64,000 nt of DNA, taken from positions 3-64,002 of the forward strand of contig CAZLBL010000001.1 in NCBI GenBank assembly GCA_964557825.1, read 5' to 3'. This document shows, one piece after another, positions 43,361 to 63,584 of the stretch. Position numbers and translations under genes: made by a program. Below the pieces are notes generated by a model. The model did not search any database. It saw only the letters and a list, made by a program, of their open reading frames with translations, and was not told the DNA's origin. The DNA is from an uncultured Ruminococcus sp. (lineage in GTDB: Bacteria > Bacillota > Clostridia > Oscillospirales > Ruminococcaceae). The number at the start of each line of letters is the position of its first letter. Within the stretch, counting starts at the first letter, position 1.

Positions 43361-43428
43361 TGTCAGACCTCCACCAAAAATCGGTATAAATTTCACAGCA
43401 CAAAAAGCGTATGCTGCCAGATAATAAT

Positions 43429-43606: not shown

Positions 43607-46000
43607 TTACATCTCGATGATTACATCGTTTTCGGTCTTAAGAATGGAGTCAAGGATAAGCTTGCCCTCAATCTTTTCGCCGTTTACGGTTACGGACTTA
43701 ACGCCATGCTCAGAGCCGTTGGGGTTCTTTACGGTAACGTGAAGCTTCTTACCACGGAAGGTCTTGTCCATGGTGTATTCCTTCCACTCAGAGGGGATAG
43801 ACGGGTCGATAACAAGACCCTTTGTTTCAGGGTTAAGACCGAGGATACCCTCTGTTGTACCAACCATAACGGTGGAAGCAGTACCTGTCAGCCAGTGAAC
43901 GTGCGCACGGCCTGCAAACGGACTGTCCTTGCCCTCAACGAACTGACCGTAAACATACGGCTCGAGTACGCGGTGTTCTGCGTTGTCGTTGTAAGTTGCG
44001 GGAGCAGCTTCTGTCCAGTACTTGTACGCGCGGTTGCCGTGACCAAGCTTGGACTCTGCGAGAATAAGCCAGCCCTGCGGCTGAGAGAAGATACCCGCGT
44101 TCTCCTTTGTGCATTTGTTGAAGCACTGCATAAGCGCGCCGTCAAAGCCGTGCTTAACATAAGGCGGATACATAACCATTGCGCCGTAGGGAGTGTTAAG
44201 CTCGCGCTCAACGCTGTCCATAGCCTTTTCACCCTGCTCCTTGGTAGCAAAACCGGAGATAACGGACCAGCTCTGCGGATTAAGCCACATGGAAGCCTCG
44301 GGGTCGGTGCGCTGACCGATAACGGTGCCGTCCTCCTTGTAGCCTCTTATCCATCTGTCCTCGTTCCAGCAAGCGGAGAGGATAGTGTCAAGCTTAGCCT
44401 TGATTTCGTCGAGGTACTTGATGTACTCGGTATCGTTCTTTTCAACTGCATAGGTGCGAAGGATTTTAACCGCATAAACAAGCTGGAATGCAACGAATGT
44501 GGACTCGCCCTTCTTGCCGAGGCGCAGGCAGTCGTTCCAGTCTGCGTGCAGACCTGCGGGCATACCGTGATTTCCGAGATGGTTCATGGAGAAGTCGATA
44601 GCTCTCTTGAGGTGGTCGTATACAGTACCCTTTTCGCCGTCGTTAGCATAGAGAATTTCCTCGTCAAGGAATGCGCTGTCGCCACTTTCGGAGATGTACT
44701 TGTACACCGTCGGGAAGAGCCACAGAGCGTCGTCTGCGCGGTAGGAGGGGTGACCTGTCTGCTTTGCGTAAACGGAGTTTTCGTCGTTTTCGTCGGGGTG
44801 ATTTTCCTGTCCTGCCTTGTGGTCGTACTTAACAAGCGGCAAACCTGCGCCGTTTGTAACCTGTGCGGAAAGCATGAACTCAATCTGCTTCTTAGCCATT
44901 TCGGGCGCAAGGTGGATTATACCCTGGATATCCTGTACTGTATCGCGGTAGCCGAAGCCGTTTCTCAGACCGCAGTACTGGAACGAAGCCGCTCTGGACC
45001 AGATAAAGGTGATGAAGCAGTTGTATGCGTTCCATGTATTTACCATGTTGTTGAAGTTAGCGTCGGGAGTGTGAACCTGAAGGTTGTCAAGCTTTGCGTG
45101 CCAGTAGTTCTTGAGCGCGGAAAGTTCAGCCTCAACAGTGCCGCTGTTTTCATACTTTGCGATAATCTCGGTTATCTCAGCTTCTGTCTTCTGTCCGCCG
45201 AGAACGTATGTCAATTCCTTTGTTTCGCCTGGCTGGAGAACGATGTCGCTCTGGAGCGCGCCGCAGGAGTTTGTGTTGTAGTTGAGGTCGCCCTTAAGAC
45301 CCTCTTCGATGCCCTTGGGGTTAGCGTAGCTTCTGTAAGAACCCACAAAAGCGTCACGGTCGCCGCAGTAAGCGTCAGCCTTTGCTCTTGCAAGGCCGAG
45401 GAAGCGTCCGCTGTTGGGGTTGTAAACCTCATTCTGCATCTGGTGGATATAGCTGCCCTTGAAGTAGGTGCGTGTGATGAACAGTGTGTACTGAAGGTTT
45501 ACCTGATCCTGCTCATAGTTGGGGTCGTTTACAAATTCGCAATAGCCTGTTACAGCCATCTTACGGGGCTTGTCGGAGGTGTTGGTTACCTTAGCTGCCC
45601 ATACCTCGTAGGTTGCGCCCTGCGGAACGTAATATGTAACCTCGGACTTAATGCCCTTGTATTCGGAAGTGATGACGGTGTAAGCTGTACCGTGGCGGCA
45701 TTCGCTCTTGAATTCGTCAAGCGGCTTGCATACAGGTGCCCAAGAAGCGGACCAGTATTCGCCTGTTTCTGTATCGCGCAGGTATACATATCTGCCGGGG
45801 GTGTCGTTTGCAACACCGTTAAAGCGGTAGCGTATAACACGGCCGTTAGCACCGCTCTTTACAAAGCTGTAACCGCCTGCGTTGTTGGAAATAATTGCGC
45901 CGTATTCGGGGTCGCCGAGATAGTTTGCCCATGCCGAGGGTGTATCGGGACGGGTGATGACATACTCTTTTCTGAGTTCGTCGAAATGACCGTAGTTCAT
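43607..46000 (-). CDS. GH94 glycoside phosphorylase (cellodextrin/cellobiose/chitobiose type)
   Basis: EYVITRPDTP, GFGYRDTVQD, ADWNDCL (catalytic Asp), KENAGIF, WLTGTA. Confidence 0.93.
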   Translation of the reverse strand: MNYGHFDELRKEYVITRPDTPSAWANYLGDPEYGAIISNNAGGYSFVKSGANGRVIRYRFNGVANDTPGRYVYLRDTETGEYWSASWAPVCKPLDEFKSECRHGTAYTVITSEYKGIKSEVTYYVPQGATYEVWAAKVTNTSDKPRKMAVTGYCEFVNDPNYEQDQVNLQYTLFITRTYFKGSYIHQMQNEVYNPNSGRFLGLARAKADAYCGDRDAFVGSYRSYANPKGIEEGLKGDLNYNTNSCGALQSDIVLQPGETKELTYVLGGQKTEAEITEIIAKYENSGTVEAELSALKNYWHAKLDNLQVHTPDANFNNMVNTWNAYNCFITFIWSRAASFQYCGLRNGFGYRDTVQDIQGIIHLAPEMAKKQIEFMLSAQVTNGAGLPLVKYDHKAGQENHPDENDENSVYAKQTGHPSYRADDALWLFPTVYKYISESGDSAFLDEEILYANDGEKGTVYDHLKRAIDFSMNHLGNHGMPAGLHADWNDCLRLGKKGESTFVAFQLVYAVKILRTYAVEKNDTEYIKYLDEIKAKLDTILSACWNEDRWIRGYKEDGTVIGQRTDPEASMWLNPQSWSVISGFATKEQGEKAMDSVERELNTPYGAMVMYPPYVKHGFDGALMQCFNKCTKENAGIFSQPQGWLILAESKLGHGNRAYKYWTEAAPATYNDNAEHRVLEPYVYGQFVEGKDSPFAGRAHVHWLTGTASTVMVGTTEGILGLNPETKGLVIDPSIPSEWKEYTMDKTFRGKKLHVTVKNPNGSEHGVKSVTVNGEKIEGKLILDSILKTENDVIIEM

Positions 46001-49607: not shown

Positions 49608-49673
49608 ATGCCCTCCATATCGGCAAAACAGCCCCCTTTGCGGAGGCTGAATATGCTTGTTTTGTATTGCGGA

Positions 49674-50933
49674 TTAGTTTGCAAGACCCGCTCTTTCGAT
49701 ACCCTCTGTAAAGTATTTCTGTAGGAATACATACATGATAACGATAGGCGCGATTGCAAGCAGACAGCCTGCCTCCATCCACACGATAAACTCGGTCGCA
49801 TTACGAACCTCATTATACAAGTACATGGAGATACTTACCGCAATGGTGTCAATCTTCAGGGAAATTGTATTTGCGTTGGTAAAGTACATGGAGGATACAT
49901 AGTAGTCGTTCCAGTACCAAACGATTGAGAAGATGAATACCGTAAGGAATGAACTTGCCGCGTTGGGAACCATTACACTGATAAAGGTCTTGAACGGACC
50001 GCAGCCATCGAGGTAAGCGGCGTCCTCAAGCTCCTTAGGAAGTCCGCGGAAGAACTGTCTGAACAGGTAAATAAACAGACCCGAACGTATACCGTTGCAG
50101 AAGAACGCAGGGATATACATTGACCAGTTTGTATCGGTAAGCGTGATAGGCGCACCAAGCATTGAGTTGAAGATACCGAATACATCGAAATATCTGAACT
50201 GCATAAACTGGGGGATAAGGATAATCTGGGAAGGTACGATAATCTGGAGGATTACAATACCAAACAGAAGGTTTTTACCCTTAAACTTAAATCTTGCAAA
50301 GCCATAACCCGTAAGTGCGCAGGTGCCAACCTGAAGTATCGAAGATATAATGTTAAGCACCAACGTATTCCAAAGGGTCTTGGGATAGTCTATCGCATTC
50401 CAGATTTCAACGAAGTTCTCAAAGCGGATAGACTTGGGTATCCACATTACCGAGGGGTCGTTCATCTCAGACTGGGGACGGATAGAAGTGGAAATCATGT
50501 ACAGTATCGGGTACAGGATTACAAACGAAAGACCAAAGATAATTACAAATCTGAAGAACGGCCATACCCAACCCGAAAGTCTGCGCTTTACCAGATAGCG
50601 GTAATGCTTTTTCTCTTTGTCGGTATAGTGGCGGTAGTTCTTGATTATCTCAAGGGTTGATACATGATAATCGTCTTTCTTTTTCTTTGCCTTTTTAGGC
50701 TTGCCCGTTTCAATCGGAACAGCCACAACAGCGGCGGCGTCATTGATATCGGCAATGGCCTCAGCTATTGCTTCGGGCGCAGCGTCCACAGGCTCTGACG
50801 CTGCAAAAGCTGCCTCAGCGTTTAATTCTTCGGCTGCCTGTGTATTGTCGGAAACAGATGTCATACTCTCAGCAGGCTGATTAGCAACATTAACATCTTC
50901 CTCGCTTGGGAAAGCAAAATTATTATCTGTCAC
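49674..50933 (-). CDS. Carbohydrate ABC permease (MalG-like) with acidic N-terminal extension
   Basis: ELEDAAYLDG EAA motif, WYWNDY; likely GTG start 50933 after AAGGAGG. Confidence 0.9.
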   Translation of the reverse strand: MTDNNFAFPSEEDVNVANQPAESMTSVSDNTQAAEELNAEAAFAASEPVDAAPEAIAEAIADINDAAAVVAVPIETGKPKKAKKKKDDYHVSTLEIIKNYRHYTDKEKKHYRYLVKRRLSGWVWPFFRFVIIFGLSFVILYPILYMISTSIRPQSEMNDPSVMWIPKSIRFENFVEIWNAIDYPKTLWNTLVLNIISSILQVGTCALTGYGFARFKFKGKNLLFGIVILQIIVPSQIILIPQFMQFRYFDVFGIFNSMLGAPITLTDTNWSMYIPAFFCNGIRSGLFIYLFRQFFRGLPKELEDAAYLDGCGPFKTFISVMVPNAASSFLTVFIFSIVWYWNDYYVSSMYFTNANTISLKIDTIAVSISMYLYNEVRNATEFIVWMEAGCLLAIAPIVIMYVFLQKYFTEGIERAGLAN

Positions 50934-50946
50934 TTCTCTAACCTCC

Positions 50947-52122
50947 TTACTCATTCTCGTAGAATACAAATCTGTTGACTATCACGGTGATAATCGCAAG
51001 GCAAGCGCCGATTATTGCGAAGTAAATCCATGCGAGCGCCGCAGATGTACCGTATTCCCAGTTTTTCGAAGCCTTAAGCACGCATTCCATAACCTCGTTA
51101 TCGGTTGCCACAAAGGCGTCTATTACCGTATACACAAGGTTTGACAAAATCATCGGGCTTATGTAGGGGAATGTAATCTTCCAGAAGAATTCCCATGAGG
51201 TTGCGCCCTCCATGCTGGCAGCTTCCTTCGCGGACGGAGGAATTGTTTGCAGCGCGGACAGGAATATCAGTATCTGGATACCTGAGTTCCATACAAGGTT
51301 AAGCACGTCACTGGTGATATCCTGAATAAACTCGGTGAGCGATTGGTTGATGCCATAGATGCCGACAAACTCCATCAGCTCTGTAACAAGGTCTGTCTTG
51401 AACAGTGTGCTGAACTGTGCCGCATCGGAAACGCCGCGCGAAGTCATATCACCGTTGATTACGCTGATAACGGGACCTGTTGCGATAAGCACAGGCAGGA
51501 AGAAGATGGAACGCGCCAAGGTTCTTCCTCTGAACTTCTGGTTAAGAATAACAGCGATAAACAGCGAGAATATCAGGATTACTATTGATTTAGGTCCGAT
51601 ATCCGCAAGGGAGTTAAGCAGTGCGGGCAGGAACTCTGCGCTGTCGCCGAAAGCGTCGATATAGTTGCTGAAGTTGTTCCACTCGGTATAGATACCTGCG
51701 GTGGTCATACCATGCAGCAGCGCGTCAGCCTTTGCATACAGCTTGGTATCGCACAGCGAATACCAAAGCGATGTGATAACGGGAAGGACAAACAGCCACA
51801 ATGTACCAACCGCCCAAAGCGCGATAAAGCCGTAGCCATACAGCCCTTTCTTTCTCTCATAGGAAATTTTAGAGGTTTTGATTTTGCGCTGTTGCTTAGC
51901 GCCGTTCTTCCTTCGTACATCGACCTCCGAGCCTTCAAGGTTGAAGGCTGCGGCTGCCGCTGTATTGTGGGCAGAAACACGAACGGGAGCAGTCTGCTGA
52001 ACCTCTGCAACGGCTTCAACCGCTGCCGGCTCTAAGCTCTCTGCGGGAGCTTCAGCGACCTCTGATACAGCTGCGTTTACTTCAGCTTCATCGTTCGGTT
52101 CGAAATTTCTTTCGTCACTCAT
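50947..52122 (-). CDS. Carbohydrate ABC permease (MalF-like) with acidic N-terminal extension
   Basis: LSALQTIPPSAKEAASMEGATSWEFFWKITFP EAA motif. Confidence 0.9.
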   Translation of the reverse strand: MSDERNFEPNDEAEVNAAVSEVAEAPAESLEPAAVEAVAEVQQTAPVRVSAHNTAAAAAFNLEGSEVDVRRKNGAKQQRKIKTSKISYERKKGLYGYGFIALWAVGTLWLFVLPVITSLWYSLCDTKLYAKADALLHGMTTAGIYTEWNNFSNYIDAFGDSAEFLPALLNSLADIGPKSIVILIFSLFIAVILNQKFRGRTLARSIFFLPVLIATGPVISVINGDMTSRGVSDAAQFSTLFKTDLVTELMEFVGIYGINQSLTEFIQDITSDVLNLVWNSGIQILIFLSALQTIPPSAKEAASMEGATSWEFFWKITFPYISPMILSNLVYTVIDAFVATDNEVMECVLKASKNWEYGTSAALAWIYFAIIGACLAIITVIVNRFVFYENE

Positions 52123-54485
52123 CAGTCAGTTGTCGCTCCTTTCAGTCCGTAATCGGTAAGGTTGATAGCCGTACCGTTGATTTCAAGCTTGAGGTTTTCA
52201 AGGTCTGCCTTGATTACCGTTCCATCGGAGAATGTTGTCTTAACAACCTTGCTGTCGATATACTCAAAATCTGTGATAGTTTCATCTGCCAGACCCTTTA
52301 TGAAGTCCTGCGATACCCTGTACTGTGCAGCGGCATTATCAAGCCAGCCATCGTAGTAGGTATAGAACAGTGTGTCATAGGTGCTGTCGGTAAACTCGTT
52401 GGGGTTCTCGTACATTACCTCGTAGTGGACGGGAGTGCCTGTCGCAAGGGCGAGCAGATACATCTCATCAGCACTGGAGCTTGCATTCATGGCCTTGGTT
52501 GTATAGGGGATATAGCCATGAATTACTATCTCATAGAAGGGAATGTCATAGTTGTAAATATCAAAGTCACTGCTGTAAAGCGGGACATTTCTGATACAGT
52601 CAACATATTTCAGTGCATAATCATTGCAGGCGTCTGCAACAAATGTAAGACCGTTGTCCTTGATTATCTGATAGCAGCTCTGAAGATACTCAACAGCTTT
52701 CTGTCTTGAAGTCTGCTTTGTTGTGTTTGCTGTAAAGTCGCTGTACAGCATATTTGTTGCTTCTTCAAGCGATATTGCCGTGATGCCTTCCTTAACATAG
52801 CTGTTTACTATCTTCTGGACTGCGTCCTGATAATAAGCGGGGGTCATGATGTACCAGCTTTCTCTGGTATCATGCGGCGTTCCAAAAGCACGCTCATACT
52901 CAATCTGGGTAGCGTATGCCTTGGTAACGCGGATAACGGAAGACGTTGTTGTGGAATAACCGTTGCCCGAACGGTGGAACTCCTGAATATCAACACTGGG
53001 AGCCAGCGTTGCGCCTATGCTTGCGCAGTAATCGGAAAGCAGCTTGTACTTGGATTTTCCACCAAGCGTACCTGCGTAATCAACGCTGTTGGAAATGCGG
53101 CTTGTAATTCCTGCTTTGTTGAAGTCCTCATAGGTTATAACCAAGTCATCAACGCCAAGCGCATACAGCTTCTCGATTATTTCCTTTGCCTGCTCATATG
53201 TTGTAGCGGCAGTTTCGAGAGAAACAGGGAAGCCCATAACAGACTGCTGCTTTACCGTGCCGCCGAAAATATCAAGGTAGAACGGCAAGCCTTCGCTTGT
53301 CTTGCCCTTTGTCAGCACGCCCTCATCAACAAGATGCTGCTGATAACGCAGGGCAACGTCTACATAGTCCGCATTGGTCTTTGCGATTGGGTAATAGCGA
53401 ACCGTTACTTTATCCTCGGGTATAATGTTGGTTTCATAAGCGCTGAGCGCCGCGTTGCTTTGTCCCATGTAATAGGAGTCTGCCGAACGCAGGCTGAAAT
53501 CAAACCAAGCGGAATTGTAAGATGTGGCACCCTGACCATTTATGCTTGCCCTTGCGGTAGCATAGGCAGAACCCTCTGTTGCGACTGCAAGAAGTGCGTT
53601 ATCCTCCTTGACGATACCAACTATCGGGAGATAAGCTTGCTCTGTCTTTGCGGGAGCCATCTCGGAGCTTACGGCAACATCTCGTCCGTAAAGCTTCTGG
53701 CTGTACTCGGCAGACTTTGATTTGCCGTTGTTGAAGTTAATTACAGCGCCGGAGCCATCGGGAGTTATCAGATAACCCTCCTCCTCGCTTGAACCTGCGC
53801 CGAGATCTTTGAACAGACTGACCGTGATAATAGAGCGAACCGTTTCGGAAGTGTTGCCCAAAAACTCCTCCTCAATTATCTCGTCAACGCCGATGGAAAC
53901 CTCAAAATAGTCATCAACAAGCGTTACATAATAAGGGATTGTGATACCCTCGTTCTTGAACACCAGCGTACACTTAAAGCCGTTTTCCACCGCCTCAAGC
54001 GTGTAAGAATCGCTTGTCATAACGTTGTAGGACTTTATATCGGTTTTGCTGTGGTCAGTATCTGTAACCTTTCTGCCCTCTATGCAAAGGGCGGATTTAA
54101 GTCCGGCAAGGTTAGAACCGGTAGCAATCGCGTCGGAATCCGCGTTGTAAGGATTGCTCCACCAGCAATAGCCGGTGTCCTTATTTTGAACCGCGAATAC
54201 TCCGGTGCTCTCATTTACATAAAGCGCCAGCGTGGACGACTGCGCATAAAGCTTACACTCTGCAAGCGCCTGCTCCTCGGTTATGAGAGAAGCTTCGGGG
54301 GCTGCTGTGCTGTCGGTATCGGCAGCAGCTTCCTCGTCTGTATTCTCGGCTGCTTCAGCCGATTCAACAGTGCCTGCATCGGTGGGAACCTCAGCGTTTT
54401 CAGACCATGCAACGCTCTGGCTTGCCGTAAGCACCATTGCAGAGCAAAGCACGCCGGCAAGTATTTTCTTGCGTAATTGAAGCAT
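52122..54485 (-). CDS. DUF5696-family secreted protein
   Basis: Signal peptide, acidic linker, WWSNP, YLITPDGSGAVI, YLPIVG, TTYEQAKEII; context typical of the family. Confidence 0.75.
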   Translation of the reverse strand: MLQLRKKILAGVLCSAMVLTASQSVAWSENAEVPTDAGTVESAEAAENTDEEAAADTDSTAAPEASLITEEQALAECKLYAQSSTLALYVNESTGVFAVQNKDTGYCWWSNPYNADSDAIATGSNLAGLKSALCIEGRKVTDTDHSKTDIKSYNVMTSDSYTLEAVENGFKCTLVFKNEGITIPYYVTLVDDYFEVSIGVDEIIEEEFLGNTSETVRSIITVSLFKDLGAGSSEEEGYLITPDGSGAVINFNNGKSKSAEYSQKLYGRDVAVSSEMAPAKTEQAYLPIVGIVKEDNALLAVATEGSAYATARASINGQGATSYNSAWFDFSLRSADSYYMGQSNAALSAYETNIIPEDKVTVRYYPIAKTNADYVDVALRYQQHLVDEGVLTKGKTSEGLPFYLDIFGGTVKQQSVMGFPVSLETAATTYEQAKEIIEKLYALGVDDLVITYEDFNKAGITSRISNSVDYAGTLGGKSKYKLLSDYCASIGATLAPSVDIQEFHRSGNGYSTTTSSVIRVTKAYATQIEYERAFGTPHDTRESWYIMTPAYYQDAVQKIVNSYVKEGITAISLEEATNMLYSDFTANTTKQTSRQKAVEYLQSCYQIIKDNGLTFVADACNDYALKYVDCIRNVPLYSSDFDIYNYDIPFYEIVIHGYIPYTTKAMNASSSADEMYLLALATGTPVHYEVMYENPNEFTDSTYDTLFYTYYDGWLDNAAAQYRVSQDFIKGLADETITDFEYIDSKVVKTTFSDGTVIKADLENLKLEINGTAINLTDYGLKGATTD

Positions 54486-54531
54486 TTTTACACCACCATT
54501 TTCAATAATAAAACGTTGTAGTTACTGTTCA

Positions 54532-55296
54532 TCAGGATTTAAGCTTTTCCATCTGCTTTTTAAGCTGGTGCTTTTCAACAAGCGTGTACGCTGTGATGAC
54601 GATAGCGGCGATAACAACCACCACGCCAACCATAATCAGTATCAGCGTTGTCGGCTCCAGATTTGTAAATCTGTAAAGCAGCTCTGTGTAAATTGAATAT
54701 ACAAAAACATAAACCTGCTGGAAAAGCGAAACGAGAAGTACGAGCAGTATGATTATAACAAGCATTGCGCACACTGTTATAAACATAAACAGAAGGGTTT
54801 TAGGTATTGAATACTGGTGAACCGTCCTCATGCCCGAAATCAGCAGAATGGCTGTCCAGAGAAGCGTAAGGTAGGATACAAACACGATAAACGCGCTCTC
54901 TGTCCGCTGAAGGCAGTTACTGAGAATAATGTTTACTACCTTGCCGATAAGCATGGGAACCAGCGCATAAGCAGTGTTAGCGCAGATATTTTTCATTGTA
55001 CCCTCGCCGTCAAACAGCGTACACAGCGCCCAGTTGCCTATTACCCATGTAAAGAACAGGACCAACGTCTGGATAATGATGGGGACGATATTGAATATCT
55101 TAACGTAATTTTCATTGAAGAGGAAGCCCGTCATGAGCTGTTCGCAGACGCTTATGATAAAGAACAGCGCTACAATCACCATGGAAACTCTCATGCTGTA
55201 GGCTTTCTTCCATCTTAAATCCTCAAAGCCCTCAAAGGGGTGGAGCATTATGTAGAAAGGCCATTTCCACTTTGGCATATCAAGGTCAAATCTCAT
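54532..55296 (-). CDS. Yip1-family membrane protein
   Basis: HPFEGFEDL, NWALCTLFDGEG, YALVP, VHQY. Confidence 0.8.
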   Translation of the reverse strand: MRFDLDMPKWKWPFYIMLHPFEGFEDLRWKKAYSMRVSMVIVALFFIISVCEQLMTGFLFNENYVKIFNIVPIIIQTLVLFFTWVIGNWALCTLFDGEGTMKNICANTAYALVPMLIGKVVNIILSNCLQRTESAFIVFVSYLTLLWTAILLISGMRTVHQYSIPKTLLFMFITVCAMLVIIILLVLLVSLFQQVYVFVYSIYTELLYRFTNLEPTTLILIMVGVVVVIAAIVITAYTLVEKHQLKKQMEKLKS

Positions 55297-55299
55297 GCG

Positions 55300-56928
55300 T
55301 TAATCCTCCCTTCCCTTATTCCGTTCTTTGAAGATACGCTCCGCCTCGGCGCGTTTCTTTGCTCTCATCTTGCCTCTTACGGAAGCGATAACATAAATGC
55401 CGACAAGCAGACCAACGATAATTATCGCGATAACGGTGAAGTTATCTCTGATGAAATCCATACGCCAGCCCTTGAACGCGTCATTATAACCGGTTTTGGA
55501 ATTGTACAGGAAGTACTCCATTGCGGTTTCATAATCGCCTTGATTAAGGTAAGCGTTGCCAAGACCGATGTAAGCCAGCCAGTAGTTGGAGTCGCGCTTG
55601 AGTACTTCCTCCCACGGACCGCGCGCCAGTTCATACTTACCGCTGTTAAACAGCGTGATTGCCTCATGAACAAGGCTGCCGAACTCGGTCTGCTTAAACA
55701 CGGTTATGCTTGCCTTACGTCCGTCAAGGACATAAACGTTTGTTCCAAGGCTTTCAACCGCGTTTACGGTTGTGAACGTACCCTTTTGCTGACCCTTGCC
55801 GCCGAAGATAAACAGCAGGGCACACTCATCGTCATACTGGAACACACGGCCTGTCTTAAGGTCAAGCAGGTTTATTGTTCCGTTCTCGCCGATATCAACA
55901 TCGGTAATCTGCGAGGAGTAAGTCTGACCACGGTAGTATTTTGTAAGGTAGTCACCAAAGATATAGTCGGAATATCCGAGATTTATAAAGATATTTGTAC
56001 CTGCGGAGTTAAGCTTCTTGATGATATCCGTTTCAACGCTCTTGGACTCGGTAACAGTGTAGATGAAGTTATCTGAGTCGATATCAAAGTTTGAAATCTC
56101 AACAGGAACGTTTCTCTGCATCTTCTTAACCTGCTCACGGGTGAATATCAGCTTCCAGAAAGCGTTCATAAGAACGTCCGCGGTAGCCTCAACACGGTTT
56201 GCGCCGAAGTATCCGTTGAACTCGCCGTCCTTAGAGAATACAACAGCGCCCTTTGTGATGGATTTGATACAGATATATACATTGCCCGCCGCGTCAACCA
56301 AAACCTTACTAGGGTTAAAGGTTGTGTTTGCGTCATAAACATCAGCGTCGGGGCGTGTGAACACCCTAATAACCTCGCCGTAACCAACGCCGTTTTCATC
56401 TACCTTTACGGTCATGGAAACCACGCGGTCGTTGGAATTATCGGCAACATAGACAACATCGTCTTTCACAAAAACGCCCGTAGGACCGTCAAAGTAGATG
56501 TCACTGACTTTATTGTACTGGCTCTGCTTTTCAGAAAGTTCTTCTTTCTTTGCAGCAAGCCATTCCTGCTGGTTGCTGAAGTCAAGGTACTCTATAGCAT
56601 TTATGAAGTTGAAATCCTTATCGGTGATAACAATTCTGCCCTTCATGCTTGCGTCCAACGTACCCTTATAGCCTGTATCCGCAATATATATTTTCTCGTC
56701 CTCTGATACATAAAGGTCGGAAGGCTCTGTAAACGAGCCAATGCCGAGATCCAGGCCGGTAACAACCTTATCCACAACATAGCCGTTCTGGGAGGGAACA
56801 GGGTCGCCCCACCAGTCGTAGTTGTAGCCGTCATACGGCTCGTCTGCGAAGGCGGTGCAGGTACCCAATGTAACAGCAGCCATTACCGCGGCGACAGCGC
56901 GCACTGCGATACGCTTTATTGATGGCAC
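55300..56928 (-). CDS. NHL beta-propeller plus TPR protein with C-terminal membrane anchor
   Basis: Signal peptide; FTEPSDLYV/YIADTG, FDGPTGVFV/YVADNS repeats; TPR YIGLGNAYLNQGDYETAMEYF; C-terminal TM. Confidence 0.82.
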   Translation of the reverse strand: MPSIKRIAVRAVAAVMAAVTLGTCTAFADEPYDGYNYDWWGDPVPSQNGYVVDKVVTGLDLGIGSFTEPSDLYVSEDEKIYIADTGYKGTLDASMKGRIVITDKDFNFINAIEYLDFSNQQEWLAAKKEELSEKQSQYNKVSDIYFDGPTGVFVKDDVVYVADNSNDRVVSMTVKVDENGVGYGEVIRVFTRPDADVYDANTTFNPSKVLVDAAGNVYICIKSITKGAVVFSKDGEFNGYFGANRVEATADVLMNAFWKLIFTREQVKKMQRNVPVEISNFDIDSDNFIYTVTESKSVETDIIKKLNSAGTNIFINLGYSDYIFGDYLTKYYRGQTYSSQITDVDIGENGTINLLDLKTGRVFQYDDECALLFIFGGKGQQKGTFTTVNAVESLGTNVYVLDGRKASITVFKQTEFGSLVHEAITLFNSGKYELARGPWEEVLKRDSNYWLAYIGLGNAYLNQGDYETAMEYFLYNSKTGYNDAFKGWRMDFIRDNFTVIAIIIVGLLVGIYVIASVRGKMRAKKRAEAERIFKERNKGRED

Positions 56929-56957
56929 TCAAAATCATCCTTTCGTTATTTATTTCA

Positions 56958-57818
56958 TCAATCCTTAAGACCCGAGTGAGCCATCGTTTCAACAACGTTT
57001 GACTGCAGGATAAGGAACAGTATCATTGGCGGCAGCATAAGTACCACAACCGTTGCCGATGAAACGCCGGCTCGGGCAATACCCGCAGCGGAAATCTGCT
57101 GCATAACTATGGGGATAGGCTTGAGCTGCTCACTGTAAACGAAGAGATAACCGGTAATCTGCCAAGCACCCTGGAATGCGAAAATCATCAGGGTAAGCCA
57201 TGCAGGCTTAACATTGGGCATTACAATCTGCCAGCACACTCTGAGATGGCTTGCGCCGTCAAGCTTTGCCGCCTCAATCATACTTTCGGGGATTTGTCCC
57301 ATAAACTGCTTCATAAGGAACAGACCCATAGGCGTTGCTATGTACGGCAGCGTGATTGCCCAGTAGGTATCAATCATACCAAGGGTTGCCATAACTATGT
57401 ACTGCACGATGTATGTAACGGAAGATGTAAACAGCAGCGCGATTTCGATAACCTTGTTCATTGCCTTTACGCCGGGAGCCTTTACCTTTGCAAGCACATA
57501 AGCGGCAGAGGAGGAAAGGAACAGCTGCGCAACCGTTACAACAACGGAAACGAAAATCGAGTTGAATACATATCTTGAGAACGGAACGTCCAAACTGCCC
57601 GCAACCTTAAGCATATCCTCAAAGTTCTGCGAGGTGGGACGCTGAACATAAAGCTTTGGCGGGAACACGAACAGTTCCTCAACAGGCTTTATTGACTGTA
57701 TAACGGACAGGTAGATAGGGAACAGCATGAACACGCCGATAAGGCACAGAACAACAAATATCGCAATGTCGCCGCCGCGTGAGCCGCCCCATCTCTTTCT
57801 TCTTTGTATAATACGCAT
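56958..57818 (-). CDS. Carbohydrate ABC permease (MalG-like)
   Basis: IPESMIEAAKLDGAS EAA motif. Confidence 0.93.
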   Translation of the reverse strand: MRIIQRRKRWGGSRGGDIAIFVVLCLIGVFMLFPIYLSVIQSIKPVEELFVFPPKLYVQRPTSQNFEDMLKVAGSLDVPFSRYVFNSIFVSVVVTVAQLFLSSSAAYVLAKVKAPGVKAMNKVIEIALLFTSSVTYIVQYIVMATLGMIDTYWAITLPYIATPMGLFLMKQFMGQIPESMIEAAKLDGASHLRVCWQIVMPNVKPAWLTLMIFAFQGAWQITGYLFVYSEQLKPIPIVMQQISAAGIARAGVSSATVVVLMLPPMILFLILQSNVVETMAHSGLKD

Positions 57819-57833
57819 GTGCTACTGTCCTCC

Positions 57834-58772
57834 TTAAGTTTCCAAAATTCCGCTCATTGCCTTGCGTATTACGTTGTTTACGAGCATCATTACAAGGAAT
57901 AGCAGGAAGCAGATCGCACAGGCATAACCCATTTCGTATCTGATAGAGCCGTAGTCGAAAGCGTGGGTCATGATGGTGTGCGCAGCGTAATCGGTTGAAG
58001 GGAAGGCTGTAAGCGAACGTCCGATATCGCCCGCTGTAAACGAAGCGGTTATCTGCATTACAGCAGCGAACAGAAGCTGCGGACCCATGCTGGGGATTGT
58101 AATATACAGAAGCTCCTGCCAGCGGTTTTTGATACCCTCGATAGCGCCCGCCTCATAGCCTGATTTATCAATGCCCTGGAAGCCTGCGCGGAGTGAAAGG
58201 AAGCCTGCACCAAGCGACATCCACATCTGGACAACAATAACGCAGACAAGAATATATCTTGCGTCTGTAAGCCACTGCTGCGGACCCTTGATAATACCGA
58301 GATCCATCAGTGTGGAGTTAAGGAAGCCGTAGGTATCGCCAGAGAAGATAAGCTGCCATGTAGCAAAAATGTTACCTGCCAGCGTGGGCGCATAAAAGAT
58401 ATATGTAAATACCGTTTTAAGCGCGCCAGGCATCTCATTGATAAGCCATGCAAGCAGGAAGCACATTACATAGCTTACAGGACCTGTGATAATAGCGAAT
58501 ACCAGCGTATTCTGGATTGCAATAAGGAAAACATCGTCCCCAAGGAACAGGGTATAGAAGTTATTAAGACCAACCCAAGTCGGAAACTGTACCATGTTGA
58601 AGCTGGTAAAGCCGATAGGGAGGGATATAAGAACAGGGATACCCGTGAATATCAGGAACAGCACAAAGTACGGAAGTGCCAGCAAATATGCGCTGCCGTT
58701 CTTTTTAATTTCACGCATGGTATAACGAAATCTACTGTCTTCGATATACTGCGTTTTATCTTTACCGAACAA
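57834..58772 (-). CDS. Carbohydrate ABC permease (MalF-like)
   Basis: WVGLNNF, GYEAGAIEGIKN EAA-like motif; TTG start. Confidence 0.92.
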   Translation of the reverse strand: MFGKDKTQYIEDSRFRYTMREIKKNGSAYLLALPYFVLFLIFTGIPVLISLPIGFTSFNMVQFPTWVGLNNFYTLFLGDDVFLIAIQNTLVFAIITGPVSYVMCFLLAWLINEMPGALKTVFTYIFYAPTLAGNIFATWQLIFSGDTYGFLNSTLMDLGIIKGPQQWLTDARYILVCVIVVQMWMSLGAGFLSLRAGFQGIDKSGYEAGAIEGIKNRWQELLYITIPSMGPQLLFAAVMQITASFTAGDIGRSLTAFPSTDYAAHTIMTHAFDYGSIRYEMGYACAICFLLFLVMMLVNNVIRKAMSGILET

Positions 58773-58834
58773 ACTGATTCCTCCTAATAGTTATTGGAAA
58801 GAGCGACCGCTCTTCCAGATTGCTCCGGAAAAGC

Positions 58835-61774
58835 TTACTCTTCATAGAAGCCAAGCTCTTTCAGCTTTCTTACAATTTCGCTGTTAATATCTCTGTTGTA
58901 AGAGATGAGCTGGTATCTGGGGTTTTTCTGGTTATTTACAACCGCTCTGAACGCGTTGTAAACGTTACGGGTTACAGCGTAGGAAGCGGGGATAATCGGC
59001 ACTTCCTTCAGATTTGCCATCTGATCGCTGATCTTTCTGTACTCGGCGGTAGACCAGTTAAGTCTGGACAGCGCCTCAAGGTTTGCTGTATCATAACGGC
59101 CGAGCGGACCCATAATGGCTTCAATGTTCTTACCGTAGGAAACCTGAGTTTCTGTTTCGGTAAACCACTTGATAAACTCCCATGCTGCCTGTTTGTTGGA
59201 GCAGGACTGGAAGATAACCGCACCGGAGGAACCAGAGTTAGCGGTATAGTCGAGAATGGTCTTGCCGTTCTCTGTTCTGTATGTGCCGGGTACATGGGTG
59301 AAATCCCACAGACCCTTGATTTCGGGAGCAGCAACGCTAAGCTGGTTATAGAACGTGTAATTCTGCACCATGATGGGCATTTCACCTGTTCTGAAACGCG
59401 TAAATGCGTCATAGGTCTGGTCGAAATCGTATACCGTGTAGAACTTTGTCCACTTTGTAAACGCATTAACCGCTGCCTCGGTATCAAATGTTGTTGCTGT
59501 CTGCTTCTCGTTGTAGAAGCTCTGACCTGTCTGGTTCATCAGCAGTACAAAGGTGTTGCCTGCGTCAAATACCTGCGAAGAAACGTTGGACGGCAGGATA
59601 AGACCAACCTCAAGATATTTTCTTTGCAGGTCGGGGAGCATATCGATAAGCGCGTCCCATGACTCTGGCGGTGCATCGTAACCAAGTTCCTCAAGAACGT
59701 CGGTACGATAGAACAGCATCGGGAAGTTCTGCGTAAGCGGTATGCCGTAAACGCCGTCGTTAAACTCATACAGCGTGGTGATATCCTCGCTGAAGCGGGA
59801 AACAACCTCGTCATAATCAGTGAAGCCCTTCATATTTACGAGAAGTCCTCTTGAAGCGCAGACAACAGGGAAGTCGCCGCCTATGAACAGCGCAACCTCA
59901 GGTCCCTTGCCCGCAAGCGTTGCTTCAAGCACGGCGCCCTGTACAAGGCTGATGGAGATGGGAGTCGAATGCTCCTGATTATATTCGGAGCTTACCAGCT
60001 CGCTTACTACGGTTGCCTGGTCACGGCCGAGGGAAACCCATACGTTAAGCGCCTGCTCGGTTGAATCTGTGATAGATGTGTAATCCTCAAAGAAAGAACC
60101 GATAAAGGACTGGAAGCCAAACGCAAACGCCGAGAAGAAGTTGGAGCCTGCGTCCTTATATTTGTCATGAACCGTCTTAACCTCAATATAGTCGAGTTCA
60201 AGCGGCTGGTCGCGGTAGTCGCGCATCCACGCGGAAACAGCGGAAATCTGATCCTTTATGCTGGAGAGCATAAGCGGGATATCATCAGGCTCGTCAACAG
60301 CCATCTGAAGAATAACCGCCATGGTCTGAAGCGTGGAAGCCTCAGAGCCTTCGCCTGTCAGCTCCTCAATACCTGCTTTTTCAGCATAGAGAGTGTCAAT
60401 AGCGTTCTGGAAAACGCTCAGCAGTTCGGGAATCTGCTCATCGATGTAGTAGTCGTTGTACTCATCGGGAGAGGGACCCGTAATCATCAGAATTCTTCTG
60501 TAATAGTAGTTAAGCTCGTAGATAAGGTCGTCAAGGCGCTGCATAACCTCGCCGATATCACCGGGGATAGCCTCAAGCATTATGGTGTTTTTCTTGTCTG
60601 CTTCAAGATAAAGGTAGATGGGGTTGCCATCGCCATCGCACAGTTCAACCGTCTGCCAGTTGGGGTCGTACTTAACCTTTACGCAGTCAAGTTCCTTACA
60701 GGGAACTTCACCGTTAATGTAAACTCGTCTGTTGGAGAAGAAGCCGCGCATTGTGCTCTGGCGCGCTTTCATCTGTATTGTATAGTAGCCGTCTGCGGGA
60801 ACTTCAAACTCCCAGCAGATGGACTGCGTAGCCTGATCCCATGTATCCGTACCGATTGTATTGTATCGCTTGTTTACGGGGTGGGAGGGGCTGACAGTGT
60901 AGTCTGTTCTGTCGTAAGTGGGGTACAGCGTAGAGGAAGTTGTGTACACCGGCGACTCCGCCTCAAACAGGATTGCCTGATTATCGGCAAGGGCGGGAGT
61001 ATTGTCAATCTGCTCCTGCGTGGGTGCTATGTCCGCATAGGACGGAAGCTCCTCCGAGTTGTAGAAGCGAATACCCTTCATGTAAAGGTTTGTTTTTACG
61101 CCGTCAAGGGATAATGTATGTTCACCCTCGGAAAGGTAGAAGAAGTACGGCGTATTTATAAGGCCGTCCTTATCCTTGATTGGATATGTCACCCAGCAGT
61201 CGTACTCCTCCTGCGGAGGGCGCTTCTGGTTTTTCTGCTTTGCGTCATATCCGATAGCGGTTGCACTGTGCCAATAGCGGTCAAGCTCAATAAGCTCTGC
61301 CTCGTCAAAGGGGCTTTCGCCGTCTATCCGGAGAACCACCTCAATCGTTGTGTTTGTGCTGGCAACGGGGTGATAGAACATCTCAAGATTGTAAAGACCT
61401 GCCTGTTCAACATTGAACGTCCATGTGATAGTTCCCTCGCTGTCCAGCCATGAAACGCAGTCCTTTTCAATGCCATAATCCACCACTTCGGTGACAGCGC
61501 CGTCTGAAGCCTTGTAGTTGAGGATATCCACAACCACTTCCTTCATGGGCATTTCTGCGTCAGCGTACTTTTCGATGTAGTTTTTGTACGCGTCCTCATT
61601 GCTTGACATACCGACATTTGCGGTACTTACTGATGACGACCCCATGGACGACTTCTGCTCTTCCTCAGCAGCAGCGCCAATAGTCATCGGAAGCTGAACG
61701 GCAGTGCTTAGCATCAATGCCGACAAAAACATTGACGTAACCCTTTTCAGCTTCAATGTGTGCTTTCTTGCCAC
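58835..61774 (-). CDS. Giant (about 979 aa) extracellular sugar-binding protein with N-terminal CBM-like domains
   Basis: Probable GTG start 61774; signal peptide; two jelly-roll-like segments (ITWTFNVEQAGLYNL, ICWEFEVPADGYYTI); C-terminal MalE-like domain (LFYRTDVLEELG, FRTGEMPI, AAWEFIKWFT). Confidence 0.85.
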   Translation of the reverse strand: MARKHTLKLKRVTSMFLSALMLSTAVQLPMTIGAAAEEEQKSSMGSSSVSTANVGMSSNEDAYKNYIEKYADAEMPMKEVVVDILNYKASDGAVTEVVDYGIEKDCVSWLDSEGTITWTFNVEQAGLYNLEMFYHPVASTNTTIEVVLRIDGESPFDEAELIELDRYWHSATAIGYDAKQKNQKRPPQEEYDCWVTYPIKDKDGLINTPYFFYLSEGEHTLSLDGVKTNLYMKGIRFYNSEELPSYADIAPTQEQIDNTPALADNQAILFEAESPVYTTSSTLYPTYDRTDYTVSPSHPVNKRYNTIGTDTWDQATQSICWEFEVPADGYYTIQMKARQSTMRGFFSNRRVYINGEVPCKELDCVKVKYDPNWQTVELCDGDGNPIYLYLEADKKNTIMLEAIPGDIGEVMQRLDDLIYELNYYYRRILMITGPSPDEYNDYYIDEQIPELLSVFQNAIDTLYAEKAGIEELTGEGSEASTLQTMAVILQMAVDEPDDIPLMLSSIKDQISAVSAWMRDYRDQPLELDYIEVKTVHDKYKDAGSNFFSAFAFGFQSFIGSFFEDYTSITDSTEQALNVWVSLGRDQATVVSELVSSEYNQEHSTPISISLVQGAVLEATLAGKGPEVALFIGGDFPVVCASRGLLVNMKGFTDYDEVVSRFSEDITTLYEFNDGVYGIPLTQNFPMLFYRTDVLEELGYDAPPESWDALIDMLPDLQRKYLEVGLILPSNVSSQVFDAGNTFVLLMNQTGQSFYNEKQTATTFDTEAAVNAFTKWTKFYTVYDFDQTYDAFTRFRTGEMPIMVQNYTFYNQLSVAAPEIKGLWDFTHVPGTYRTENGKTILDYTANSGSSGAVIFQSCSNKQAAWEFIKWFTETETQVSYGKNIEAIMGPLGRYDTANLEALSRLNWSTAEYRKISDQMANLKEVPIIPASYAVTRNVYNAFRAVVNNQKNPRYQLISYNRDINSEIVRKLKELGFYEE

Positions 61775-61856
61775 AGTGTTTTCCACCTTTCCTAGACTGT
61801 AATGCAGCATATCGAAATCGGGCAGCGCCCAATCAAGATACAAAATTAAATTCACC

Positions 61857-62762
61857 CTAGCGAGGGTAAATACATATCCTGCCGTCCTCAAGCTCAACGC
61901 GTACTTTATCGCCGCCCTTAAGCCCAAGTTCTTCAAGATATTCCTTGGGAATTTGCAGACGCCCCGCGCGGTCAAGAACCGAAAGCTCCTCATGGGCGGT
62001 TTGTTCTGCTTCCTCTGTAAGCTCCCCGAACGACTTCGCCGAAGCCCTTCTGACAAGCTCCGTAGAGGTTTTGCCATCGCGGATTGCCACAACGCGGTCA
62101 ATCTGCGCGGAAAGCTTTGTATCATGCGTTACTATTATAATGGTAACGCCCATGACCTTGTTAAGCTGACGGAACACATCAAGTATAAGCTTCGCCGTTG
62201 CGGTGTCAACCGAGCCTGTCGGCTCGTCCGCAAGCAGCAACTTCGGGTTGTTTGAAAGAGCAATTGCTATCGCAACGCGCTGCTGCTCTCCGCCCGACAT
62301 CTGGTCAAGGCGGCTGTTTCTGCGGTGGGAAAGACCCACCATGTCAAGCAGCTCCACAGCCCTTGCGCTTCTCCGCGAGAAGCCCGAAAGCAGAAGCGGC
62401 ATTTCCACATTCTGCTGTGCCGTCAAATAGGGAATCAGGTTGCGCGCATTATTCTGCCACACAAACCCGACTGTTTTTCTCTTGTATTCTATGAAATCCT
62501 TTTCAGTGAACTTCAGCATATCCTTTCCGTCAACGAAAAGGCTGCCCGCAGATGGTCTATCAAGACCGCCAAGCATATTAAGCAGGGTAGATTTACCGCT
62601 GCCGCTTGAGCCAACAATACCCATCAGTTCGCCGCGCTCCACTGTGAGGTCAAGCCCTTGCAGCGCCATAACCTCCACATCTGTGGACTTGTATATTTTG
62701 ACGAGGTTATCCGCCTGAACCATAACGTTCTCGGGCGGGGCAAGCATGACTTTTTTAGGCAT
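61857..62762 (-). CDS. LolD/MacB-type ABC ATPase with C-terminal AbrB/MazE-like domain
   Basis: GSSGSGKST, MSGGEQQRVAIA, LADEPTG; C-terminal LDRAGRLQIPKEYLEELGL; ATG 62762. Confidence 0.9.
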   Translation of the reverse strand: MPKKVMLAPPENVMVQADNLVKIYKSTDVEVMALQGLDLTVERGELMGIVGSSGSGKSTLLNMLGGLDRPSAGSLFVDGKDMLKFTEKDFIEYKRKTVGFVWQNNARNLIPYLTAQQNVEMPLLLSGFSRRSARAVELLDMVGLSHRRNSRLDQMSGGEQQRVAIAIALSNNPKLLLADEPTGSVDTATAKLILDVFRQLNKVMGVTIIIVTHDTKLSAQIDRVVAIRDGKTSTELVRRASAKSFGELTEEAEQTAHEELSVLDRAGRLQIPKEYLEELGLKGGDKVRVELEDGRICIYPR

Positions 62763-63480
62763 CTGCAACCTCCCCGTCGTCAATGGGATTTTCCGTGATG
62801 TCGCTGATAACGCCGTCCTCCAGCGTGTAAACGATATCAGCAAGCTCCATTATTGAGGTATCATGTGTTGTCATAACGATTGTAAGACCGCCGCTGTGCA
62901 CAAGCTCCCTGAACAGGCGCATTACCGCAAGACCCGTTGGCAGGTCAAGCTCGGCAGTCGGCTCGTCCGCGAAGATGATTTTTGGCGAAACCGCGATTGC
63001 CCTTGCTATGGCGACCCTCTGCTGCTCGCCGCCCGACATCTCGCCGGGGCGGTGGTGCATACGCTTTTCAAGACCCACCTGCACAAGTGCCTGTTTCGCA
63101 CGCTCTGCGCGCTGCTTATACGGCAGCTTTTGCAGCCTTAACGCGAACTCCACATTCTCAAACGCGGTCATAGTTGAAATGAGGGCGACCGACTGAAACA
63201 CAAACGCCATCTCGCAGCGGCGAAGCTTATCGCGCGCCGAATCCGACAGCTTTGTGATATCGTTATCCTGTCTGAGGAACAAAACCTCTCCCGATGTAGG
63301 TCTGTCCAGTGCGCCGAGAATATTTATCAGCGTGGTTTTGCCCGAACCCGAACGCCCGCGCAGCACCGAAAGCTTATTCGGCTTAATTTGCAAATTTATG
63401 CCCTTAAGCGCATGAACAGTGCTTCCATCGCCGATATTGAAGTCCATGCAGACGTTATTCGCTTGAATTATATGTTCCAT
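62755..63480 (-). CDS. LolD/MacB-type ABC ATPase
   Basis: GRSGSGKTT, MSGGEQQRVAIARA, FADEPTA, TTHD. Confidence 0.93.
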   Translation of the reverse strand: MEHIIQANNVCMDFNIGDGSTVHALKGINLQIKPNKLSVLRGRSGSGKTTLINILGALDRPTSGEVLFLRQDNDITKLSDSARDKLRRCEMAFVFQSVALISTMTAFENVEFALRLQKLPYKQRAERAKQALVQVGLEKRMHHRPGEMSGGEQQRVAIARAIAVSPKIIFADEPTAELDLPTGLAVMRLFRELVHSGGLTIVMTTHDTSIMELADIVYTLEDGVISDITENPIDDGEVADA

Positions 63481-63555: not shown

Positions 63556-63584
63556 ATTATATCAAATTTATACGCTGATGTCAA
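63556..63584 (-). promoter_or_regulatory. Promoter of ABC cluster
   Basis: TTGACA, 17 bp spacer, TATAAT: perfect consensus. Confidence 0.85.

Follow-up and report, generated by a model that had tools for sequence, protein, structure and literature searches.

The minus strand of a 64,000-nt stretch of a Ruminococcus sp. contig, hereafter the window, carries between positions 63480 and 49674 a run of ten genes in which two ATP-binding cassette (ABC) ATPases are followed by a giant substrate-binding protein (SBP), four importer permeases and three accessory envelope proteins. The genome is ~2.4 Mb in size. A sequence-only reading of the window had proposed that the ten products form a single unusual ABC machine. 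Its gene list has held up, since all ten minus-strand open reading frames and the domains given to them are confirmed by the reading-frame coordinates and by Pfam and NCBIfam domain matches. So has the perfect promoter: a sigma-70-type consensus site at 63556-63584, also on the minus strand, reads TTGACA, a 17-nt spacer with TG, and TATAAT (12/12 match), ~75 nt upstream of the first gene. The terminator of the previous gene lies at 63873-63854, upstream of this promoter.

The first gene, atpA (62755-63480; ABC_tran match), encodes a 241-aa nucleotide-binding protein of the LolD/MacB/DevA type, in which the Walker A, signature, Walker B-Glu and H-loop motifs are intact. The second, atpB (61857-62762), encodes a LolD/MacB-type nucleotide-binding protein of ~301 aa that ends in an AbrB/MazE-like (SpoVT-AbrB) domain. 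Next come the 979-aa SBP (58835-61774), with a SBP_bac_1/8 match and an AlphaFold2 (AF2) model, and a first permease pair, perm1 of the MalF/UgpA type (57834-58772; EAA loop YEAGAIEGIKNRWQEL) and perm2 of the MalG/UgpE type (56958-57818; EAA loop IEAAKLDGAS). The accessory genes follow. They encode an NHL-TPR protein (55300-56928), in which a signal peptide, an NHL-repeat beta-propeller and TPR repeats are combined with a C-terminal membrane anchor; a multi-pass membrane protein with a Yip1 domain (54532-55296; PF04893 over residues 15-184, 55.7 bits against a cut-off of 28.6); and a 787-aa DUF5696 protein (52122-54485; 499.6 bits) with a fold like those of glycoside hydrolase families GH129 and GH101. 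A second permease pair closes the series, perm3 of the MalF type (50947-52122) and perm4 of the MalG type (49674-50969), the latter with an N-terminal tail of ~130 aa. Beyond perm4, a GC-rich intrinsic terminator-like hairpin at 49624-49649 (CAGCCUCC-GCAAA-GGGGGCUG, then UUUUG) marks the downstream boundary of the operon; the next gene is rnhA.

The genes are as closely packed as had been claimed, neighbours overlapping or sitting 3-82 nt apart. The genes atpA and atpB share 8 nt, the atpB ATG lying inside the end of atpA; the gaps then measure 82 nt (atpB-SBP), 62 nt (SBP-perm1), 15 nt (perm1-perm2), 29 nt (perm2-NHL-TPR), 3 nt (NHL-TPR-Yip1) and 46 nt (Yip1-DUF5696). The perm3 start overlaps the DUF5696 stop by 1 nt (ATGA), and perm3 and perm4 overlap by 8-23 nt depending on which perm4 start is chosen. 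The claim that no clear internal terminator interrupts the series is partly right, but needs qualifying at the atpB-SBP spacer (61790-61875), which folds into two conserved RNA hairpins (minimum free energy -28.3 kcal/mol, z = -2.3). The first of these, 9 bp long and followed by a weak U-tract, straddles the atpB stop, the second lies downstream, and both are kept in relatives with compensatory base changes. The hairpins may act as a partial terminator or attenuator, or as a processing or stabilising element, and they may set the ratio in which the ATPases and the rest of the operon are expressed. A promoter-like site inside atpB (62209-62182) sits within conserved codons.

In related Oscillospiraceae, the arrangement is strictly conserved. 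Among 16 loci from metagenome-assembled genomes (MAGs), whose DUF5696 proteins are 62-93% identical to that of the window, 13 span the region and all 13 hold the ten genes in the same order. The ten-gene order is more than chance, because no related locus long enough to show it departs from it, and as far as sequence can tell the ten genes form a real operon.

At greater distance the picture changes. In samples of genomes, DUF5696 is found in 27/81 members of the window's own family, 79/300 of its class and 32/401 of its phylum; in the class sample it occurs in 48/178 genera, with up to four copies per genome. We fetched 20 kb around 20 distant DUF5696 copies that are 17-35% identical to the window protein. 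Sixteen of these loci hold all eight genes from the SBP onwards (SBP, perm1, perm2, NHL-TPR, Yip1, DUF5696, perm3 and perm4), either in the order of the window or in a circular permutation that starts at NHL. A LolD-type ATPase lies near none of the 20 distant cassettes, and in one case (L072) an MsmX-type ATPase directly precedes the giant SBP. Neighbourhood conservation, by which the sequence-only reading proposed to judge its machine, thus holds for the eight cassette genes, fixed in order across many families, but not for the two ATPases (0/20). The larger glycan capture and translocation complex that it envisioned remains reasonable for the eight co-conserved genes but not for the ATPases, and ten genes as one machine are not what the comparison reveals: the ATPases are missing from distant loci and, as we describe below, are orthologous to the ATPase pair of a pump.

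The best NCBIfam matches of AtpA and AtpB are DevA, LolD, FtsE and MacB (1e-49 to 5e-66), all below the equivalog cut-offs, so that both proteins belong to the LolD/MacB/FtsE subfamily and no named equivalog applies. The AbrB-like tail of AtpB (PF04014, 31.5 bits) recurs in orthologues that are linked to a pump. A pump of this kind is present in the window genome, on contig C8, where an HlyD-like adaptor (C8:1831-2826; weak Biotin_lipoyl_2, HlyD_3 and HlyD_D23 matches, of which only HlyD_3 clears its cut-off) is followed by an intact 929-aa permease (C8:2861-5650) that combines two FtsX modules with a MacB periplasmic core domain (MacB_PCD). The adaptor is conserved upstream of the double-FtsX permease in all loci examined, and no ATPase gene lies beside the C8 pair.

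The phyletic pattern connects these separated parts. Among the 300 genomes of the class sample, 44 encode the double-FtsX permease and 41 an atpB orthologue. The two are found together in 40 genomes; the permease occurs without atpB in 4 and atpB without the permease in 1, and the remaining 255 lack both. Of 43 atpB loci in this sample, 32 lie no more than 3 kb from the permease, in the order HlyD, double-FtsX, AtpA, AtpB. In the family sample of 81 genomes the atpB and permease sets are identical (13/13), and in five of these genomes AtpA-AtpB directly follow HlyD-doubleFtsX. We therefore propose, on orthology and phyletic pattern rather than by exclusion, that AtpA and AtpB form the heterodimeric ATPase that drives the C8 MacB-type (type VII) pump and are not part of the cassette. 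The operon would then consist of an eight-gene import cassette, powered in trans by an MsmX-type ATPase, together with the ATPase genes of a pump encoded elsewhere, a reading to which we give a probability of roughly 70%.

MacAB-like type VII pumps such as Spr0693-0694-0695 of S. pneumoniae (PMC5768738) share with the window pump a LolD/MacB-type nucleotide-binding domain (NBD), an HlyD-like adaptor and an FtsX-type permease that bears a MacB periplasmic core domain. The window pump differs from them in its single 929-aa double-FtsX chain and its two different NBDs, one of them AbrB-tailed, and in that the NBD genes lie apart from the membrane parts, inside a sugar-importer operon.

What, then, would drive the importer? 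No MalK-type ATPase is encoded in the operon. The earlier statement that a MalK/MsmX-type ATPase is absent holds only for the locus; elsewhere the genome encodes one, at C30:14382-15509 (479.6 bits on the UgpC/MsmX model, cut-off 432). This gene is an orphan, with neither permease nor SBP beside it. A locus without its own MalK-type ATPase is readily understood, because a shared orphan MsmX is usual in Firmicutes (PMC8579813). In C. bescii, CUT1 systems lack an ATPase of their own, and a mutant deleted for the msmK that they share grows very poorly on xylan, cellulose, pectin and cellobiose (PMC8579813). All four window permeases have canonical EAA coupling loops, as expected of CUT1 permease pairs, and these loops are essentially as in cassettes without the ATPase pair. 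Given such ordinary loops and an orphan MsmX in the genome, MsmX is likely the motor of the importer.

Several observations weigh against this assignment of motors, and they also feed a rival view, that AtpA/AtpB have been recruited as the ATPase of one or both MalF/G pairs, replacing MsmX or serving the importer besides their pump role. The window genome has three CUT1 permease pairs, two in the operon and one elsewhere, on contig C5, and the C5 system would need MsmX anyway, so the presence of MsmX does not discriminate. The ATPase pair, joined by its 8-nt overlap and only 82 nt from the SBP gene, keeps the head of the cassette, where a dedicated importer motor would sit, in at least eight genera; two ATPase genes face two permease pairs; and LolD-type NBDs are close to those of MetN-type importers, on whose models they score well, so that cross-use is possible. 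Moreover, a second stand-alone LolD-like ATPase gene is present in the genome (C79:1599-2264, minus strand). Its 221-aa product is 45% identical to AtpA; a LysM-like protein is encoded upstream and no FtsX-type permease beside it. Against recruitment by the importer speaks the tight phyletic coupling of the pair to the double-FtsX permease (13/13 and 40/41), which stays intact without an ATPase of its own. An MsmX-type ATPase is found in all nine other pump-linked genomes and hence kept in all 10 carriers, the EAA loops have not changed relative to cassettes that lack the pair, and 18 cassette-bearing genomes of the same family do without it. The ATPase tree follows family taxonomy; its cassette-linked branch is somewhat long, within the pump-linked range, and gives no clear sign of accelerated evolution. 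On balance we consider such a motor swap very unlikely.

If AtpA and AtpB serve the pump, their place at the head of a sugar importer could simply reflect neutral hitch-hiking: pump ATPase genes would have landed behind a strong promoter, and the other adjacencies between pump and cassette would be coincidence or common descent. In fact, at least four families have a split pump operon, and in two of these the ATPase pair stands alone with no cassette nearby. The adjacencies themselves argue otherwise. In the window family, five genera have the canonical pump operon, six have AtpA-AtpB-cassette (the window genome, G644, G706, G735, G701 and G750) and two (G720 and G714) have AtpA-AtpB-cassette-HlyD-doubleFtsX on a single strand. 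The coupling of ATPases and cassette is thus old, being common to at least eight genera of the family. In family f196 (G633 and G499), it is HlyD-doubleFtsX that abuts the cassette, with the ATPase pair elsewhere, and a sister genus in that family has an intact pump operon. A tree of concatenated permeases places the cassettes of f1 and f196 in separate clades with good support, from which we conclude that the two linkages are of independent origin. Three arrangements in two families and unrelated cassette lineages are hard to reconcile with chance abutment, which is very unlikely in genomes of 2-3 Mb. Pump and cassette are also positively associated in presence (odds ratio ~6; p = 0.0075 for the family sample and p = 4e-7 for the class sample, kinship being ignored). 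Finally, G739, a congener of another species, lacks DUF5696, atpB and the double-FtsX permease together, linked and unlinked parts at once; this joint absence is seen although the permease is unlinked to the cassette and atpB in the window genome.

Other facts tell against a close tie between pump and cassette and sit well with hitch-hiking. The cassette and HlyD-FtsX2 of G720 are set apart by a strong terminator and a distinct promoter, and in G633 a promoter-like site lies ahead of the SBP gene; adjacency is therefore not always co-transcription. In the class sample, the cassette occurs without the pump in 54 genomes and the pump without it in 16, and since so many carry one system without the other, any cooperation must be facultative. 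Weighing both sides, we hold pure hitch-hiking to be possible, if doubtful. The association of pump and cassette is real but facultative; the gene arrangements make their co-regulation likely, and a physical or functional cooperation possible. Two genera of family f150 (L098/L099 of G404, and G439:C34) carry both systems on one contig, with ~17-21 kb between an intact HlyD-doubleFtsX-AtpA-AtpB operon and a DUF5696 cassette.

The earlier alternative of a coupled import-export device gains comparative support from pump parts that abut the cassette in three arrangements, but not in the form of a single ancestral machine. We think it quite unlikely that, in these lineages, the twin-importer cassette and the MacB-type pump operate together as a single envelope machine. 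In such a machine, the mechanotransmission stroke of the type VII pump may act on the SBP, on the NHL-TPR/Yip1 scaffold or on the GH129-like protein, or the pump may export a side product of glycan uptake. Most boldly, AtpA/AtpB may also dock on the MalF/G-type permeases, a cross-class exchange of ABC motors. As far as our literature search went, the three-way, independently evolved linkage of the cassette to a split heterodimeric pump is undescribed.

The cassette itself, in contrast, is already in the literature, unrecognised as a module. The xylan degradation locus of C. bescii contains xloEFG, Athe_0177 (an NHL repeat protein), Athe_0178 ('GH129') and axoFGE in one operon induced by xylan and Avicel (PMC8579813). 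To go by these annotations, it resembles the window operon in its succession of an SBP, two permeases, an NHL protein, a GH129-like protein and two further permeases, and in its CUT1 permeases that depend on a shared MsmK with no ATPase in the locus. It differs in having a second SBP and xylanases downstream and no LolD-type ATPases. PMC8579813 treats these genes as two transporters and an enzyme rather than as a conserved module, with XloEFG and AxoFGE as separate transporters and the GH129 and unknown genes between them. By this account there would be no higher-order assembly at all, just two ordinary and independent CUT1 importers with an enzyme and a hypothetical membrane protein, and the standard EAA loops of each permease pair would fit. 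We find it unlikely for the cassette at large, since the order SBP-P-P-NHL/Yip1-DUF5696-P-P, with its NHL-Yip1 fusions, is kept across proteins only 17-35% identical, and most loci, the window's included, provide a single giant SBP for two pairs. This SBP, moreover, generally lacks a lipid anchor, which suggests that partners retain it. One binding protein for two MalF/MalG pairs, with the accessory proteins between them, had been noticed in the window from the start, and most cassette loci follow the same plan. Eight genes co-conserved in fixed order, with NHL and Yip1 often fused, suggest that the cassette is a multi-protein module for glycan capture and import, a reasonable reading of its composition.

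Classical CUT1 importers (TC 3.A.1.1; MalEFGK2, UgpBAEC, MsmEFGK/MsmX) share with the window operon an SBP_bac_1/8 binding protein, MalF/G- and UgpA/E-like permeases with EAA loops and, in the genome, an orphan MsmX-type ATPase. The operon departs from them in its two permease pairs per SBP; in the SBP itself, which is ~980 aa long with modules resembling carbohydrate-binding modules (CBMs) and without a lipobox; in its three conserved accessory envelope proteins; and in its LolD-type ATPase genes. The SBP gene starts with GTG, a start conserved with its ribosome-binding site in 10/10 relatives. The SBP_bac_1/8 domain covers only the C-terminal 400 aa and belongs with the CUT1 binding proteins (PF13416, 87.6 bits; PF01547, 72.4 bits; residues ~605-892). 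Its nearest match is the Listeria sophoro-oligosaccharide binding protein Lin1841 (E 1.9e-16, residues 571-971). In the AF2 model (mean confidence, pLDDT, 82), the N-terminal half folds into two CBM35/CBM6-like beta-sandwiches and a long helical stalk. Foldseek relates the sandwiches to CBM35 and CBM6 at E 1e-5 to 1e-7, with TM-scores to the target of 0.56-0.68; the Pfam matches to CBM_35 and Golvesin_C fall below cut-off.

The SBP has a signal peptide without a lipobox. We had entertained a lipoprotein SBP and rejected it, as neither the window protein nor most of its relatives have a lipobox. An SBP without one is unusual in Gram-positives, and because the lipid anchor is generally absent, its retention by partner proteins suggests itself for this giant SBP. 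As for the permeases, perm2 and perm4 exceed the BPD_transp_1 cut-off of Pfam, perm3 falls just under it (23.8 vs 26.4) and perm1 is recognised by the NCBIfam UgpA/PotB models alone. The N-terminal cytoplasmic tails of perm3 (51840-52122, ~95 aa) and perm4 (50580-50969, ~130 aa) are acidic, Ala-rich and poorly conserved. Elongated perm3 and perm4 are typical of the ATPase-headed cassette clade, at 333-432 aa vs ~300-330 aa elsewhere.

The accessory proteins are the least familiar part. NHL-TPR and Yip1 are often fused in other lineages into a single protein of ~700 aa. The DUF5696 protein is built from an N-terminal hydrophobic helix, an acidic linker, a beta-sandwich, a (beta/alpha)8 barrel and a beta domain (AF2 model with pLDDT 73 and predicted TM-score, pTM, 0.80). 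Foldseek matches its whole chain to the GH129 enzyme ZgGH129, a 3,6-anhydro-D-galactosidase (5opq; E 4e-31, TM 0.57/0.67), then to NagBb, a GH129 alpha-N-acetylgalactosaminidase (5wzn; E 3e-25), and then to GH101. Sequence similarity is also detectable with a broad profile of 26 diverse DUF5696 members, which finds ZgGH129 (8rzk/5opq) at E 5e-13 and NagBb at 2.8e-7; a profile of a single clade reaches only E 6e-4. The profile alignment with ZgGH129 runs from the N-terminal sandwich into the first strands of the barrel and ends before the catalytic Asp, D486. Thus DUF5696 is a remote homologue of GH129 that shares the fold of the whole chain with these enzymes, from which it differs in its low identity (13-16%) and its membrane anchor. 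Nor does the Pfam GH129 model match it, and a search for an invariant Asp or Glu across the 26 members returned none. D583 is an Asp in 20/25 diverse members, and position 681 is a Glu in 23/25 and an Ala in the window protein. At position 645 (codon 52551-52553), within a YDYD motif, Asp is found in 38/40 close and 20/25 distant homologues, and Asn in the window protein and its nearest relative, a substitution that, on this alignment, could represent the loss of a functional acidic residue. The modelled fold makes DUF5696 a candidate enzyme or a binding pseudo-enzyme. A full-text literature search for 'DUF5696' returned no papers, and one for Yip1, NHL and SBP together found nothing relevant. 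To our knowledge, the NHL-TPR protein, Yip1 and GH129-like DUF5696 have never been studied.

How these parts would work together we infer from gene content, synteny, orthology, phyletic patterns and folds. The stalked SBP would span the wall, and its CBM-like modules would capture glycan fragments beyond it, while the SBP domain would pass oligosaccharides to perm1/2. At the membrane, the NHL-TPR/Yip1 unit would serve as a scaffold for the GH129-like protein and for the SBP, which has no anchor of its own. DUF5696, always encoded right before perm3/4, would trim a second ligand or present it to these permeases. An MsmX dimer would energise both permease pairs, as suggested by what is known of the family and by the C. 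bescii work (PMC8579813). AtpA/AtpB, to go by orthology and phyletic evidence, would energise the HlyD/double-FtsX pump, their genes being transcribed from the strong promoter of the cassette.

Read in this way, the operon brings together a CUT1 importer and parts of a MacB-type pump, both of known kinds, in a combination that is a new variant. If the accessory proteins do form a complex with the two translocons, we envision that the cassette would be a Gram-positive answer to the capture of large glycans and the feeding of ABC importers. Its recurrent, independent linkage to a split heterodimeric MacB-type pump makes the cooperation of an importer with a type VII system a testable hypothesis. 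For annotators the locus also carries a warning, in that adjacency alone is insufficient to pair ATPases with permeases.

The genes around the operon bear on the possible substrate. A 797-aa GH94 phosphorylase, of the size of cellobiose and cellodextrin phosphorylases, is encoded 3.7 kb downstream (43607-46000, minus strand). Between it and the operon lie the housekeeping genes rnhA, a CDP-alcohol phosphatidyltransferase, a PHP protein and a hibernation factor. Farther downstream, both on the minus strand and without an evident link to the operon, are genes for a BspA-type leucine-rich-repeat surface protein (41897-43396) and a dCache-PAS-GGDEF diguanylate cyclase (36393-38378). Past the right end of the window (C1:64631-67156; L074:2632-5157), a gene that lies upstream of the operon and shares its strand encodes an 841-aa protein whose only Pfam match is a C-terminal type I dockerin, a finding that suggests a fibre degrader of the cellulosome type. 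With this dockerin-bearing neighbour and the nearby GH94 phosphorylase, the organism is probably a fibre degrader. The cassette occurs in about a quarter of the sampled Clostridia genomes, often in multiple copies. Given this frequency, the share of the cassette in the CUT1 pairs of the window genome (two of three) and the probable fibre-degrading habit of its host, it probably serves gut and rumen Firmicutes as a main route for taking up oligosaccharides. From the GH94 neighbour comes a weak hint that beta-glucan oligosaccharides may be what the cassette imports.

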